Below, one piece after another: positions 19,711 to 25,180 of a stretch of 64,000 bases of DNA. The position numbers were made by a program, and so were the translations under genes. A model generated the notes under the pieces. The model made no database searches, had not been told where the DNA came from, and saw nothing but the letters and a program-made list of their open reading frames with translations. Numbering within the stretch: position 1 is the stretch's first letter; every line of letters begins with the position of its first letter. This DNA is from Candidatus Poribacteria bacterium (lineage in GTDB: Bacteria > Poribacteria > WGA-4E > WGA-3G): contig CBDBPM010000002.1 in assembly GCA_965208735.1 (NCBI GenBank), positions 3,699,687 to 3,763,686 on the forward strand, read 5' to 3'.

Positions 19711-20583
19711 GTGCCAACTGATTTGCCATTAGGGATGGACATCTTAGAAATGACAGATAGTGAACTTTATGAAATAGGGATTAAAATCCTTACTGCTAAA
19801 CTCGGTGACTCTGAGGTGCCACGGTTTATTCGGCAGTGCAATCCCGGTAAAGGCGATTACTCTGTTGATCGACATAAATTGCTGGCAAATCAGCCCGGCA
19901 TTGACACCATTGTCAAGCGGATCCAAGATAGACGTGCGGCAAGGGAAGCAGAAGAACGCTCGCGTGCTAAAAGGTTTGCTATGCCTCAAAGTGAAATCCA
20001 AAAAATGACAGATATTGAGATTTCTGAAATCGGAAATCAGGTTCTTATCAATAAACTTGGCACAGCTGGATTGATAGGGTTTATCAGGATTTGCCAGGAA
20101 CTTAACGGTGGTTATCCTCGGGGACTGATTGAAAGTAGTGAAGAGGCTAAAGAATACATTAAACTTTACACTGCAAGCTTGATCTTAAATCCTAAAATAG
20201 TCGAAGACTACATTAAACGCGGCAATGCCTATAGTTACATTGGTGAGCATGACAAAGCCATTGCTGACTATGATCAGGCGATAAAACTCAAACCTAATTA
20301 TGCCAAAGCCTATTACAATCGCGGCAACGCTTATCGTGATAAAGTTGATTTTGACCAAGCTATCGCCGACTATACCAGAGCAATAGAACTCGAGCCCGAT
20401 TATGTTGATGCCTATTACAATCGCGGTAAACTTTACGATGAGATAAATGCGTATAACAAAGCCATTGAAGACTTTAGCACAGTGATAAAACTTGACCCTG
20501 AACATGCCGATGCATATAACTATCGTACTACGGTTTACCGCGATAAAGGCGAGTATGACAAAGCTAGGGAATCAGTCAGATAA
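19711..20583 (+). CDS. TPR-repeat protein with a duplicated N-terminal about 70 aa module
   Basis: The N-terminus has two copies of an (L/I)xxMTDxE(L/I)xEIGxx(I/V)LxxKLG...FIRx module, followed by at least five TPR units (AYYNRGNAYRDKVDFDQAIADYTRAIELEPDY...). GTG or ATG (19735) start. Confidence 0.7.
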   Translation: MPTDLPLGMDILEMTDSELYEIGIKILTAKLGDSEVPRFIRQCNPGKGDYSVDRHKLLANQPGIDTIVKRIQDRRAAREAEERSRAKRFAMPQSEIQKMTDIEISEIGNQVLINKLGTAGLIGFIRICQELNGGYPRGLIESSEEAKEYIKLYTASLILNPKIVEDYIKRGNAYSYIGEHDKAIADYDQAIKLKPNYAKAYYNRGNAYRDKVDFDQAIADYTRAIELEPDYVDAYYNRGKLYDEINAYNKAIEDFSTVIKLDPEHADAYNYRTTVYRDKGEYDKARESVR

Positions 20584-20610: not shown

Positions 20611-22239
20611 ATGAACGATAAATCCGATTCTCAAAATGAACTTAATAGGGTTTTGGAAAAGATTCAAGAAATAGTAAAAAAGTCCGCTGATGGAGATTAC
20701 ATCTATCGGGGTGAACCAGAACTGCATCAAGAACATCCTTATCATGGAAAGGTTTCCTCAAGCCTGTATCGCTCGTCATTGACTGATTCTGTAATGGAAG
20801 AGGGTATAGAAGAGTACCGTAAAATTATTGAATCTCAGATTGGGAACAGGGAACGGTGGACTTTGGAGTTGGCGAAAGAATATTTATATGAAACTGGCAG
20901 CGAAACAATCAGCGATTTTGAAATCTTAGCGCGACTCCAACACCATGGTGGTAAGACCAATCTTATAGATTTCACAACTGACTACCTGATTGCTCTCTTT
21001 TTTGCCTGTGATAGATCCTATCATAAAGATGGCAGGGTTATCTTACAAAAAAGAGAATCGGAAGATTACCAAGCGGAAACACCTTCAGAAGCAATTAAAC
21101 GGGTGGAATCCCAAAAAAGTGTACTGCTCCGGTCGCCAAAAGGTTTTATCAATCCAGATGTTGTGGTGATTATTCCAAAGGAACTCAAATTTTCCGTGCT
21201 AAACTATCTTGAAAAGCACCACGACATATCTACTAAAAAGATTTACAAAGATATCCACGGATTTGTAAAATGGTTAGGCGGATACATTGATCCTATGGCT
21301 GAATTTGGTAAAGGGGTAATTTGTCAAAATAGGGCGAGTTTAGGAAATAACATGCAGGAGAAATTGAAATGGTATGAAAAAGCTTATGAGCATTTTACCG
21401 AAGCATTGAGACTAAAATCAGATTTCACCGAAGTTTATATTCATCGCGGAGCTGTTTTTCGCGATGTTGCCCAGTTTGATCCTGCTCTTAAAGACTTTAA
21501 TACTGCAATAGAAATAGTCCCTGAGGCTGCCGATGCGTATAACGAGCGCGGAAGATGTTATGCTAAAATGGGTGATACTGAAAAAGCACTAAAGGATTTC
21601 AACATTGCTATAGATTTGAATTCAGAGAAGGCAGATTTCTATAACAATCGCGGTATAACTTACAAAGATATGGGTGAAGTTGACTTGGCAATGAAAGATT
21701 ATAATAAAGCAATAGAACTAGATCCAGAATTTCCCGAGGCCTATAACAATCGCGGCATAGTTTATGACGAGAGAGGTGAACTTGACTGTGCTATCAAGGA
21801 CTATAGTAAGGCAATAGAACTCAAATCTTATTATGCGAATGCCTGTAATAATCGCGGTCTGGCCTACCGAGAAAGGGGTGATGTTGATCTTGCCATTGAA
21901 GACTTTAGAAATGCAATTATAGGAGAGTATGATTTTGCTGAAGCTTACTACAATCTCTGTGAAGCCTACCTCATCAAAGGTGATTTTGAGAGTGCTTATA
22001 CTGACTTGGCTACACTAGCAATGCTAATGTCGTCTCCCTATGCGTATTTTGCTTGCGGTATAATCGGGTTGTGCCAACAGCAATGGGAAAAGGCTAGATC
22101 AGACTTTACTGTTGCTACGGATAACGGATTGGATATCGTCGCTTTATTTTATAAAGATTATGGAGGCATTGAAGACTTTGAGCAGAAGAATGATCTTCAG
22201 TTACCGGAAGACATCGCGACGATGTTGAGGCAGCAATAA
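20611..22239 (+). CDS. FRG-domain protein fused to a C-terminal TPR array
   Basis: N-terminal YIYRGEPELHQEHPYHGKVSSSLYRS ... LARLQHHGGKTNLIDFTTDYLIALFFAC fits the FRG-domain (PF08867) pattern: FRG ... L.PS.fR ... QHyG.PTrLlDwT...A.yFA. The C-terminal half is at least seven TPR units plus a tail shared with the next gene. Confidence 0.7.
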   Translation: MNDKSDSQNELNRVLEKIQEIVKKSADGDYIYRGEPELHQEHPYHGKVSSSLYRSSLTDSVMEEGIEEYRKIIESQIGNRERWTLELAKEYLYETGSETISDFEILARLQHHGGKTNLIDFTTDYLIALFFACDRSYHKDGRVILQKRESEDYQAETPSEAIKRVESQKSVLLRSPKGFINPDVVVIIPKELKFSVLNYLEKHHDISTKKIYKDIHGFVKWLGGYIDPMAEFGKGVICQNRASLGNNMQEKLKWYEKAYEHFTEALRLKSDFTEVYIHRGAVFRDVAQFDPALKDFNTAIEIVPEAADAYNERGRCYAKMGDTEKALKDFNIAIDLNSEKADFYNNRGITYKDMGEVDLAMKDYNKAIELDPEFPEAYNNRGIVYDERGELDCAIKDYSKAIELKSYYANACNNRGLAYRERGDVDLAIEDFRNAIIGEYDFAEAYYNLCEAYLIKGDFESAYTDLATLAMLMSSPYAYFACGIIGLCQQQWEKARSDFTVATDNGLDIVALFYKDYGGIEDFEQKNDLQLPEDIATMLRQQ

Positions 22240-22271: not shown

Positions 22272-23105
22272 GTGGTAACGCGTAAACCTAATGATACCGA
22301 GTCATATTACAATCGTGGCATCGCTTACTACGAAAAACGTGAGTATGATAAAGCCATCGCAGACTTTAGCGAGGTCATAAAACGCGCACCCAATCATGTT
22401 GATGCTTATTACAATCGCGGCAATGCTTATTGGGATAAAGTTGATTTTGACGAAGCCATTGCAGACTATACCAAGGCGATAGAACTCAAGCCCGATTATG
22501 CCGAAGCCTATTACAAGCGCGGTAGAATTTATGCTGAGGACGATGAGTATCACAAAGCCATTGACGACTTTGGTATGACGATAAAGTTTGACCCTGAACA
22601 TTCCAACGCGCATGGTTATCGTGCTGACCTTTACCGTGATATAGGCGAATACGACGAAGCCGTTGCGGGGTATAACATGGAAATGGAACTCCGCCCCGGT
22701 GCCCCCGAGGTCTATTATAACCGTGGAAACACTTACGCCGCAAAAGGTGAATATAACAACGCCATTGAAGACTTTAGCAAAGCGATAGAACTAAATCCAG
22801 AGTTTGCAGAGGTTTATGTCAAACGCACTTTAACTTATATCCGAATAGGCAAATTTGATCGCGCCATTCAAGATTATGACAAGGTGCTGGATCTCAAACC
22901 AAAATCTATTGCATTCTACGCGGCTCGTGGTATAATATCTCTACAAATAGAAGAATGGGAAAGTGCTAAATTAGACCTGATTTTTGCCAGAAATTTAAGA
23001 GTGAATATCATCAATATATTCCATACAATGTACGAAAACGTTGCTGACTTTGAAGAAAAAAATAATGTGCAGTTGCCGAAAGACATCACGGCAATGCTGA
23101 CGTAA
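22272..23105 (+). CDS. TPR-repeat protein, paralog of 19711-20583 and of the C-terminal half of 20611-22239
   Basis: TPR units with 80-90% nucleotide identity to stretches of the first TPR gene. The C-terminal tail (NVADFEEKNNVQLPKDITAMLT) is paralogous to the tail of the FRG-TPR protein. GTG start with a weak RBS. Confidence 0.65.
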   Translation: MVTRKPNDTESYYNRGIAYYEKREYDKAIADFSEVIKRAPNHVDAYYNRGNAYWDKVDFDEAIADYTKAIELKPDYAEAYYKRGRIYAEDDEYHKAIDDFGMTIKFDPEHSNAHGYRADLYRDIGEYDEAVAGYNMEMELRPGAPEVYYNRGNTYAAKGEYNNAIEDFSKAIELNPEFAEVYVKRTLTYIRIGKFDRAIQDYDKVLDLKPKSIAFYAARGIISLQIEEWESAKLDLIFARNLRVNIINIFHTMYENVADFEEKNNVQLPKDITAMLT

Positions 23106-23160: not shown

Positions 23161-24363
23161 ATGCTGGCACAAACTATTTCCGATATCATAGAATGCAAGC
23201 AAACAATTGAAAATCATAGGTTTGACGAAACCGCGACTAAACAGTATATTGTTCTCCCTATTCTCAGATCCTTAGATTGGCAAGATGACAATTTATATAC
23301 GTTAGAGGTGTTTCCAGAAAAAAGAGTTGGCGATGGAAAAGTTGACTATGCTTTGCAACATGATCAAACCTCTTTGGTATTTGTTGAGTGTAAACGTTGG
23401 GGCACAAGCATTGAGAAATATCAGGCACAAATTTGCCAGTACGCTTTTCAAGCAGGAATAGAAATAGCCGTTATCACCAACGGAAAAATATGGGACTTCT
23501 ACCTACCTAATCTAACAAGTACACCTGACAGGAGGATTATACCATGGGAAGATAGGATTTTCTGTTCCATTGATCTTGAAATACAGCAGGAAGCAGCATC
23601 CGACTTCCAAAAATATCTCTCCAAGTCTAATGTTGAACAGGGGAAAGCAAAGGTGGAAGCGCGAGAAGCGTTTCAACCCCGATTGTCCGATACTCCTTTA
23701 CCACGGCAGAATTATGGATTACCGATTCTGAAAGCCTTAGAAAGTCTTGGAGGTTCTGGAGCGACCCACCGAGTATTAGAATTGGTCTATCAATTCATGG
23801 ATTCGGCTAATGAGCTGCGAGAAATAGATAAGTCTCTTCGATCAGACGGTCAGTTTTATTGGGATAATCGGACCCAGGACATGCGACGAGAATTAATCAG
23901 TAAAGGTCTAATGAAAGATGATTCTCCGTGGGGTATTTGGGAAATCTCTAATGCTGGGCTTGAATACCTCTGTGATATGGATGTCCAAAAATCACCACGA
24001 TCCCCAACCCTGAATACTTCTTCGCACGAACATGGGGCTGAACCTTCTGATACTCCGCTTCCACGAACGAGCTATGCTTTACCTATTTTAAAAGCCTTAA
24101 TCCAGCTTGGTGGCTCTGCAATCACCAGTGAGGCACTCAAAACAGTTCGCCAATTAATGGAAAACGAATTGAAACCAATAGACCTATCACAACGTCCAGC
24201 CGGACATTTGTATTGGGAAAACCGTGTTCACGATATGCGACGAGAATTGATAAATAGGGGTCTAATGGTAGCCAATTCTCCGCGCGGAATTTGGGAAATT
24301 TCTGATGCCGGGCGTGAGTATCTTATTAATCTTAATAGTAAGGAAAATTTAGACAGTGGATAA
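23161..24363 (+). CDS. Restriction-endonuclease-like protein: N-terminal HsdR_N-type PD-(D/E)xK nuclease domain plus two tandem Mrr_N-like winged-helix domains
   Basis: GDGKVDYALQHDQTSLVFVECKRW...IAVITNGKIWDFY fits the HSDR_N pattern (rpDYvl...vvEaK...iiTNG..w.fy). The C-terminal half is two repeats of about 110 aa (DTPLPR..Y.LPILKAL..LGGS.....L..V.Q.M.....E...R..G..YW.NR..DMRRELI..GLM...SP.GIWEIS.AG.EYL) that match the Mrr N-terminal wHTH pattern. RBS GGGGAG. Confidence 0.7.
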   Translation: MLAQTISDIIECKQTIENHRFDETATKQYIVLPILRSLDWQDDNLYTLEVFPEKRVGDGKVDYALQHDQTSLVFVECKRWGTSIEKYQAQICQYAFQAGIEIAVITNGKIWDFYLPNLTSTPDRRIIPWEDRIFCSIDLEIQQEAASDFQKYLSKSNVEQGKAKVEAREAFQPRLSDTPLPRQNYGLPILKALESLGGSGATHRVLELVYQFMDSANELREIDKSLRSDGQFYWDNRTQDMRRELISKGLMKDDSPWGIWEISNAGLEYLCDMDVQKSPRSPTLNTSSHEHGAEPSDTPLPRTSYALPILKALIQLGGSAITSEALKTVRQLMENELKPIDLSQRPAGHLYWENRVHDMRRELINRGLMVANSPRGIWEISDAGREYLINLNSKENLDSG

Positions 24364-25180
24364 TACAACTAAACCTGTTATAGCAGCTCCAACAGCGCGT
24401 GCGGAGTCCGATCTTGACGGTGCGAGAAACATCCTTGCGGATGCCCTTTACGAGATGGGGTATGATGGCACGTTAGTAGACACTCTGATAGAAAGAAATG
24501 TCATTGATTTCAGTACTGTTGACTACACAAGCCATATCAAGTACCAACTTAGAGAACGTTATGGAGAATCTATTTTATGGGATGATAGTCTTGAAGATGC
24601 TGTTGCCGTTGAGGTTTTAACAGTTTCTTTAACAGGTGAACTGGGAAAAAACTGGAGTGCCTCTAAGAACGACACTTTTCAAGAACGTATCCGAGATGTG
24701 ATCGGAAAATTAATTGAAAAGTTAGGGCTAAAGGTAGTTTTGCGCTATGATTTAGTAAAGAATGGCACCTTATCCGAAGAATTGGAAAGTGTTAAACAAC
24801 ATTTGACAGTTGATTATGGAGAATTTAACTCTGATCTCCCGTATGTTGATCTTGTAATTTATACCGCCGAAAATTCGCGTGTTATTGCTGTAATCTCGTG
24901 CATAATTAATTTGAAACCCCGAATTTTTGACACAGTTTATTGGAGACTCAAATTTCGGGAAGACGAAGATAAAGCCTCTATCAAATTCTATCTCGTCACA
25001 ACTGATATAGACGAAACTCTGAAGATTGCAGACTTACCGGAAAAAAGACGAGCCATTTTAGAGGCAGAACTTGATGGCATCTATGTACTAACAGCATCGG
25101 AATTTCAGCAAAGCGATAAGGTTAAACTGTTTGAACATTTTATTGAGGATTTTAAACAAGCCATAGAAGAGAGTCAATAA
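24356..25180 (+). CDS. Hypothetical protein, translationally coupled to the nuclease gene
   Basis: Overlaps the upstream stop by 8 nt. 274 aa, acidic, no recognisable family. The segment PYVDLVIYTAENSRVIAVISCIINLK could be a degenerate D...(D/E)xK motif, but this is speculative. Confidence 0.55.
   Translation: MDNTTKPVIAAPTARAESDLDGARNILADALYEMGYDGTLVDTLIERNVIDFSTVDYTSHIKYQLRERYGESILWDDSLEDAVAVEVLTVSLTGELGKNWSASKNDTFQERIRDVIGKLIEKLGLKVVLRYDLVKNGTLSEELESVKQHLTVDYGEFNSDLPYVDLVIYTAENSRVIAVISCIINLKPRIFDTVYWRLKFREDEDKASIKFYLVTTDIDETLKIADLPEKRRAILEAELDGIYVLTASEFQQSDKVKLFEHFIEDFKQAIEESQ

Follow-up and report, generated by a model that had tools for sequence, protein, structure and literature searches.

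A NADase head joined to a repeat sensor is an already known kind of protein. BcTpr of Bacillus cereus carries a DrHyd/MilB-like NADase head with C-terminal TPRs and has a TIR partner, BcTir; the TPR tunes the NADase, and anti-phage activity is reported in the preprint (10.1101/2023.05.26.542521). In DSR2 a SIR2 NADase is combined with a helical-repeat sensor, which binds the phage tail tube protein, and the outcome is abortive infection. The FRG domain, in turn, is described as uncharacterised in Pfam. Papers from Aravind's group assign Frg to the ADP-ribosyltransferase (ART) superfamily and see in it a possible NADase effector in prokaryotic immunity. PADLOC lists FRG proteins as the phage defence candidate PDC-S15, detected through 'guilt by embedding'; the PDC label marks candidates that lie inside known defence systems. 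Hence, the view of the preliminary description that FRG is functionally uncharacterised is right for experiments, none of which on any FRG protein appeared in the literature searched, but overlooks the published ART-superfamily/NADase assignment and the PADLOC candidate. The 2020 paper of Burroughs and Aravind is said to be both the primary one on Frg and the basis of the BcTir/BcTpr work.

Here we describe a FRG-TPR gene in a 64,000-nt stretch of Candidatus Poribacteria DNA (the window). Among sponge-symbiont bacteria it is a typical member of a large, undescribed family in which a FRG or TIR head is followed by a TPR array and a C-terminal cap; this FRG/TIR-TPR-cap family is what is new here. 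We suggest, at a probability of roughly 0.55, that the gene product is a cytoplasmic NTPase-free sensor-effector immune protein of a defence island, with a FRG head whose predicted chemistry is directed to NAD+. The gene, its parts and its neighbours are the following.

19735..20583, + strand: 'head2'-TPR gene, 3-4 TPRs after an N-terminal domain of ~150 aa, no cap
20611..22239, + strand: FRG-TPR-cap gene, 542 aa, with FRG head, TPR array and C-terminal cap
20611..21285, + strand: FRG head, aa 1-225, Pfam core aa 30-139
21286..22038, + strand: linker (EFxKG motif) and TPR array, aa 226-476
22039..22236, + strand: conserved C-terminal cap, aa 477-542, the last TPR-like hairpin and three short helices
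22272..23105, + strand: headless TPR-cap paralogue, 277 aa
23161..24363, + strand: PD-(D/E)xK (HSDR_N-like) nuclease domain and two Mrr_N winged-helix domains, 400 aa
24356..25180, + strand: BsaWI-like endonuclease homologue, overlapping 23161..24363 by 8 nt

We find the FRG-TPR-cap gene to be genuine and intact. Its Shine-Dalgarno sequence is strong, an AGGAGG six bases upstream of the ATG. The strings quoted earlier from its product, YRG (aa 32-34), LYRS and LARLQHHGGKTNLIDFTTDYLIALFFA, all occur in it verbatim, as do the two quoted tails in this protein and in the downstream TPR paralogue. The protein has a FRG head, and the cap follows its TPR array, as in the family. It has no signal peptide and its N-terminus is hydrophilic. 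The full-length AF2 model (pLDDT 80.7, pTM 0.56) leaves the packing of the head against the TPR array undefined.

The FRG assignment is confirmed. In the HMM search that had been proposed as a check, PF08867 matched significantly at aa 30-139, with 51 bits (E 2.8e-13; the cut-off is 25 bits) and positions 3-92 of the 94-position profile covered; aa 1-225 alone gave E 4.5e-14. The FRG signature, tested as [FY]RG and QHxGxxTxLxD[FW]T...A..FA, is present as YRG at aa 32-34 and as QHHGGKTNLIDFTTDYLIALFFA at aa 110-132. In the alignment of 50 relatives at ~50% identity the conserved N-terminal domain extends to ~aa 225. About 23 head residues are invariant there, among them R33, G34, E35, S50, R54, Q110, H111, T116, N117, D120, D124, R164, Q168, K169 and S170. 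The AF2 head model built from this 50-sequence alignment is an alpha/beta domain (pLDDT 84, pTM 0.83). Foldseek of the head against PDB and BFVD gave nothing significant, with no MilB-like structure among the matches, and the FRG alignment profile matched none of the PDB sequences. There is likewise no signal in hhalign of FRG against Arr-2, the sequence of which was verified against PDB 9iba; a local FRG/Arr-2 match (QHHGGKTNL / YHGTKANL) lacks significance and conflicts with the secondary-structure prediction. R33, S50 and Q168 are candidate residues for the NAD+-binding triad of ARTs (R/H - S/Y - E/Q). By Foldseek and hhalign no known catalytic triad could be mapped onto the head, which would suit an inactive FRG fold serving as a scaffold or regulator; the invariance of ~23 residues at ~50% identity argues against such a fold.

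Behind the head Pfam TPR_1 matches six stretches (E 7.9e-48), and a match to TPR-S (PF20308), with 19.5 bits (E 0.0015), stays below its threshold of 27.6 bits. In the AF2 model aa 215-540 consist entirely of helices, which are paired at aa 215-504 and form ~8 TPR-like hairpins, so that the earlier count of at least seven repeats is fair. The tail that had been noted as common to the downstream paralogue is the last ~66 aa, 41% identical between both window proteins. Its three short helices (aa 509-517, 520-526 and 533-540) are well predicted, with pLDDT ~90; hence, the tail is a folded cap and not a loose peptide. The cap carries the motif W..EWxKAKxDL...G.DI...F...Y....DFExK...LPxDIAxML, and the cap HMM matches the FRG-TPR-cap protein with E 1.3e-33 and the headless paralogue with E 1e-32. 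In Pfam and NCBIfam this ~65-aa unit has no match beyond TPR. It is thus a new conserved module, whose role can be tested.

The linker between the head and the TPRs is only ~40 aa long and holds no P-loop, NACHT or NB-ARC module, nor is there any NTPase family among the Pfam, NCBIfam or PADLOC matches of the protein. This makes it different from the Avs/STAND proteins, which it resembles in having an effector head and a TPR-type sensor array, diversifying sensors and several paralogues per genome. With DSR2 it shares a single polypeptide with an N-terminal NAD+-depleting head (here predicted), a C-terminal alpha-solenoid and no NTPase. However, the DSR2 head has the SIR2 fold, which Pfam and PADLOC do not find in our protein, the repeats are of another type and there is no sequence relationship. 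As in BcTir/BcTpr, a head predicted to process NAD+ is followed by TPRs, and in related Poribacteria loci the FRG-TPR gene is likewise paired with TIR genes. Unlike in BcTpr, the head is FRG and not MilB-like; the TIR domains of the relatives sit on their own TPR+cap chassis instead of in a small partner, and the window has no TIR gene. Membership in Avs/STAND, DSR2 or BcTpr is therefore rejected, as the defining domains are missing. PDC-S15 has a homologous head, and its single proteins are likewise lodged among restriction-type genes. Thirteen PDC-S15 models, which have no curated cut-off, match the FRG head with E-values from 1.5e-16 to 1.1e-6. These models are 254-487 aa long, the match covers the FRG part only, and TPR+cap is not known there. 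Another FRG protein (454 aa, E 2.4e-21) lies in the cos-proximal anti-phage hot spot of the P2-like phage P2_2H1.

With the head as query 1,421 relatives were found; over half of the 120 best also have TPR Pfam domains, and the only named organisms among these 120 are Candidatus Poribacteria. Scanning one genome per GTDB species yielded 396 loci, the best 80 of which come nearly all from Poribacteria MAGs, where a chromosome often has two or three of them; a few of these 80 are labelled Latescibacterota, Binatia or Dehalococcoidia. The window is accordingly almost certain to come from a poribacterial sponge symbiont. ORFs were called in 87 loci, the window included, and scored with custom FRG and cap HMMs. 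TPR and cap are in the same ORF for 59 of the 98 FRG ORFs (373-966 aa, median 551), and a separate TPR-cap ORF starts <200 nt downstream, often with an overlap, for another 23; most of the remaining 16 are truncated by an IS element or by the end of the contig. Thus, what was taken for an unusual architecture is the standard form for this FRG clade in Poribacteria, either fused or as adjacent genes. To find a pair both fused and split is classic evidence for joint action of its parts.

The cap leads to the same family from the other end. An exhaustive cap-profile search covered 1.84 billion cluster representatives; as the profile contained one TPR unit, it was inflated by generic TPR proteins, and its counts (99,900, 30,679 and 1,824) are not family sizes. 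After the best 150 were re-scored with a cap-only HMM there were 46 true cap proteins (50%-cluster representatives). FRG heads are found in 27 and TIR in 17, so that 44 of the 46 are of one or the other kind; among the other cap proteins one has head2 and two begin inside the repeats. Fourteen of the 17 TIR assignments were made by phmmer; the others are P0275 (TIR_2, E 2.4e-26), P0268, placed by its P0275-like N-terminal sequence only, and P0261, where TIR_2/SEFIR stands behind the cap. Another TIR_2 head on the TPR+cap chassis has E 2.4e-16. A word-indexed cap search listed only proteins of 67-130 aa, probably through a coverage effect and 3' fragments of broken genes. The array, regarded earlier as a generic protein-interaction scaffold, is probably no such thing, since it belongs to a TPR+cap chassis that bears almost exclusively FRG or TIR heads.

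The linker motif EFxKG is common to the TIR and FRG versions, and TIR-TPR-cap genes are in tandem with FRG-TPR-cap genes in six loci (L056, L060, L061, L068, L069 and L086) and were counted next to them in 9 related loci; no TIR ORF lies within the window. TIR is a proven NAD+-cleaving immune domain. The one-for-one exchange of FRG and TIR on one chassis is the best evidence here for the function of FRG: it suggests, independently and from context, that FRG acts on NAD+. Interchangeable heads also give a direct experimental handle on FRG.

Other members of the family carry restriction-type domains. Behind the cap there are TaqI_C (E 4.5e-13; L048, L058 and L086, and also the independently called proteins P0242, P0250, P0333 and P0370), Mrr_N (2.1e-9; L023) and DUF4268 (2.2e-22; L034). 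A PD-(D/E)xK domain is placed ahead of FRG in L033 and P0249, Trypsin_2 forms the N-terminus of P0245 and P0263 (1.8e-24), and a weak HEPN match occurs in the family. The nuclease gene of the window, 23161..24363, is related to these fusions in both its halves: its N-terminal domain is 51% identical over 172 aa to the PD-(D/E)xK domain of the L033/P0249 FRG-TPR-cap proteins, and its Mrr_N winged helix-turn-helix (wHTH) is 58% identical over 93 aa to that of the L023 fusion. Hence, the nuclease adjacency reflects a real functional link. The earlier statement that the FRG-TPR-cap gene is next to a nuclease is loosely right: nucleases are nearby, with the TPR paralogue 22272..23105 in between.

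We suggest that defence against phages is the most likely role of the FRG/TIR-TPR-cap family. This reading builds on the PDC-S15 matches, the FRG/TIR exchange, the fused and split forms and the restriction-type fusions; on the hot spot with its IS elements, the multiple copies, the variable TPR number, the mosaic 3' end and the dN/dS values (see below); and on the P2_2H1 location of a FRG protein, the BcTpr and DSR2 precedents and the published ART assignment. In the proposed mechanism the FRG domain would be the enzymatic effector acting on NAD+, either as a NADase or generator of a signal nucleotide, or as an ADP-ribosyltransferase. The TPR array and cap would be the regulatory and recognition part, keeping the head inactive, in cis when fused and in trans when split. 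Binding of an invader-derived protein, or assembly of an oligomer through the cap, might then free the head activity. Once freed, this activity would halt the replication of the phage and, as in abortive infection, probably sacrifice the infected cell. The headless TPR-cap paralogue and the nuclease/wHTH gene probably assist as accessory partners: the former may serve as a regulator or decoy, and the latter may couple DNA sensing to the activation of the FRG-TPR-cap protein.

The same build could also belong to a host-interaction factor, an 'eukaryote-like repeat' protein acting at sponge cells, with a head that modifies host targets or immune signalling and TPRs that bind host proteins. Nearly all members of the family come from Poribacteria or from other MAGs of phyla that are known to occur in sponges, across phylum labels, and TPR proteins are enriched in sponge symbionts, where they are thought to maintain the host association. 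Among effectors aimed at the host, ART-type and TIR enzymes are classic examples. However, secretion systems are mostly missing from sponge MAGs, the protein has no signal peptide and begins with a hydrophilic N-terminus, restriction genes and IS elements surround the gene, and fusions to TaqI_C, Mrr_N and PD-(D/E)xK make little sense for such a role, which we consider quite unlikely. Like the eukaryote-like repeat proteins of sponge symbionts, the family is TPR-rich and abundant in Poribacteria and Latescibacterota; it differs from them in its FRG/TIR heads, its restriction-type fusions and its location in restriction islands. In Pfam surveys its members would count as eukaryote-like repeat proteins, yet they are probably not host-interaction factors. 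This calls for caution when the 'eukaryote-like' TPR proteins of sponge symbionts are counted by Pfam, as such counts mix immune and host-interaction proteins.

Returning to the defence role, we put forward, tentatively and as a possibility that we would not call probable, a joint reading of these observations. TPR+cap may be an unrecognised NTPase-free pattern-recognition module of sponge symbionts, on which NAD+-cleaving heads, FRG and TIR, are swapped by recombination at a fixed linker. It would come in fused and two-gene forms and make up a length-variable repertoire of multiple paralogues, possibly hetero-oligomerising via the cap and regulated by its headless members. On this reading FRG would process NAD+ as a new immune enzyme, functionally equivalent to TIR, and a sizeable part of the 'eukaryote-like' TPR expansion in sponge symbionts would be antiviral immunity. 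With this family an uncultivated phylum would contribute a repeat-sensor immune architecture that has no NTPase.

Conserved housekeeping genes border the hot spot in which the gene lies, a variable region of low GC content. A variable cassette occupies this one chromosomal site in at least 20 poribacterial species, flanked by a DUF8034 gene and a sugar-phosphate isomerase-like gene (AP_endonuc_2). Its order is head2 genes, a small acidic protein, FRG-TPR-cap, a headless or head2-bearing TPR-cap gene, optionally an N6_N4 methyltransferase with HNH, optionally PD-(D/E)xK-Mrr_N, and the BsaWI-like gene, which is the constant member of the hot spot. IS elements share the site with the methyltransferase, HNH and BsaWI-like genes. 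In the window the cassette consists of head2-TPR, FRG-TPR-cap, TPR-cap, PD-(D/E)xK-(Mrr_N)2 and the BsaWI-like gene, with intergenic gaps of 27, 32 and 55 nt and then the overlap of 8 nt, and its GC content is 0.39 against ~0.47 in the flanks. A phage origin was considered and rejected, since only 2 loci were found in IMG/VR.

The head2-TPR ORF is listed from GTG 19711, and its likely start is ATG 19735, where the alignment with head2 of the close relative L001 begins. The ~150-aa head2 domain has an internal duplication; it is absent from Pfam and NCBIfam, and its profile matches none of the PDB sequences. Its homologues in 19 related loci are either stand-alone (146-157 aa) or fused to TPR(-cap). 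A headless TPR-cap partner lies directly downstream of the fused gene in many related loci (L008, L013, L014, L017, L022, L028, L029 and L032). The DNA of the two TPR genes flanking FRG in the window is repetitive, positions 20243-20542 being 77% identical to 22339-22638. An inserted FRG gene that left the 290-aa and 277-aa genes as halves of a single one is ruled out by this repeat, as their homologous TPRs overlap, and is also countered by L014 and L022, in which the same separate genes flank FRG.

The arrangement of the cassette also bears on a toxin-antitoxin or addiction module, in which a FRG toxin would be checked by TPR-cap, in cis or in trans, or by the small upstream proteins, with no sensing of an invader. 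The split forms resemble two-gene toxin/partner pairs, a headless TPR-cap gene follows the fused one, and in relatives the small acidic protein shares 4 nt with the start of FRG or is in frame with it. ART-fold toxins such as RES, DarT and ParT form toxin-antitoxin pairs. The literature puts Frg in the same ART superfamily as the toxins of RES-Xre, DarTG and AbiGi/AbiGii, whose organisation the split forms and small upstream genes recall. However, no homology to these systems was detected, and the partner is TPR+cap instead of an HTH or macrodomain antitoxin. The small acidic protein is absent from the window by tblastn, and both it and head2 occur only at the hot-spot type of locus and not with FRG-TPR-cap genes generally; hence, the minimal conserved unit is FRG with TPR-cap. 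Long TPR arrays of variable length and fusions to DNA readers exceed what a simple antitoxin needs. We regard a pure addiction module as unlikely, and note that it is only partly a rival of phage defence, since toxin-antitoxin and abortive-infection roles overlap.

Last but not least, the evolution of the gene fits a sensor-effector protein of this kind. Against the closest species representatives, identity falls from 77-89% in the head to 57-75% in the TPR array and 42-58% in the cap, and close orthologues are 509-762 aa long. This gradient, with the length range, points to a mosaic 3' part and a variable number of repeats. In the two closest relatives the orthologues are broken by IS elements: in L002 an IS630 is inserted after codon 207, with the 3' half continuing in frame without a stop, and in L001 a DDE_Tnp_4 element lies near window position 21644. 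These disruptions, and the many family members that are fragments in databases, would also be expected of a gene being lost in an IS-rich symbiont genome. Against this, the window copy is intact, with its strong Shine-Dalgarno sequence, and dN/dS of the head is low; we hold decay, like the inactive fold mentioned above, to be very improbable. By the Nei-Gojobori method dN/dS is 0.12-0.18 in the head and 0.28-0.33 in the TPR array, and dN in the array is about three times that of the head. Purifying selection acts on the window gene, whose putative recognition part evolves faster.

The BsaWI-like gene is always present at the hot spot, and the genes upstream of it differ between loci: they encode an N6_N4 methyltransferase with an HNH protein, a PD-(D/E)xK-Mrr_N protein, or both. 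In the window and at the related locus L018 no methyltransferase gene adjoins the BsaWI-like gene, hence its product is unlikely to be a type II enzyme of the classical sort, paired with a cognate methylase.

Features in the window, at related loci (L-numbers; L001 and L002 are the two closest relatives) and in cluster-representative proteins of the cap search (P-numbers)
Window 23161-25180; also L001, L002, L010, L012, L015, L018, L019, L026, L031: BsaWI-like gene with its upstream partner
Window 19711-20214; L001 7113-7586; L012 5113-5586; L020 2541-3718; others: head2
L001 7587-7913; L008 2530-2754; L027 416-640: small acidic protein, separate ORF
L010, L015, L018, L019, L032: small acidic protein in frame with FRG
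L002 8713-9572; L001 10313-11042: interrupted orthologues of the window FRG-TPR-cap gene
L048, L058, L060, L061, L069, L086; P0242, P0250, P0333, P0370: TaqI_C-type fusions

One to three copies of head2 can lie upstream of FRG genes. The family is about 150 aa long, contains an internal duplication of about 40 aa with the motif MTDxExYExG...L...LG, and has no matching entry in Pfam, NCBIfam or PDB. In an alternative form head2 is fused to TPR or TPR-cap and takes the place which is held elsewhere by FRG or TIR. A head2-TPR-cap gene of this kind is found, for example, at L011 (8842-10134, 430 aa). In the window, positions 20243-20542 of the head2-TPR gene and 22339-22638 of the headless TPR-cap gene share 77% identity over 300 nt, and the two genes look like partial copies of a head2-TPR-cap gene such as that at L011.

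Directly upstream of the orthologous FRG genes a small acidic protein with the core MKQNKFPPGWDEERVQKVIDYYENQTEDEAVAEDEAA is encoded. In many cases its ORF and the FRG start share 4 nt, or the two seem to be in frame; none is present in the window. This protein could be an antitoxin or a regulator. The ORFs at the related loci were called with the first-start rule, which may have produced the in-frame arrangement artificially. Transposase genes of the IS630 family and of DDE_Tnp_4 type interrupt the orthologues of the window gene in both of the closest relatives. The 3′ half in L002 picks up in frame, without a stop.

Behind the cap, some FRG- and TIR-TPR proteins carry a TaqI_C-type DNA specificity domain of about 350 aa without a methyltransferase domain. 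The genes of these fusions adjoin those of TaqI_C-containing proteins of 1,140-1,240 aa, which are probably type IIG-like enzymes. P0245 and P0263 are built in two tiers: a Trypsin_2 protease and a first TPR array precede TIR or FRG, behind which come another TPR array and then the cap.

L088 (NC_049386.1 30979-32343) is gp44 of the P2-like phage P2_2H1, an FRG protein of 454 aa annotated only as hypothetical, and its gene occupies the known anti-phage hot spot of P2, from gpA to the end of the genome. L090 (IMGVR_UViG_2740892559_000001) and L034 are on the same 78,675-bp poribacterial contig, which encodes FRG-TPR-cap-DUF4268 and is classed as viral in IMG/VR; this listing may reflect a prophage or a misclassification.

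Residues 110-144 of the FRG protein ('HHGGKTNLIDF...DGRVI') locally resemble the NAD-binding segment of Arr-2 ('YHGTKANLAIG...DGRIL'). The likeness is not significant in hhalign (probability 0.5%) and conflicts with the predicted secondary structure, and it was rejected.
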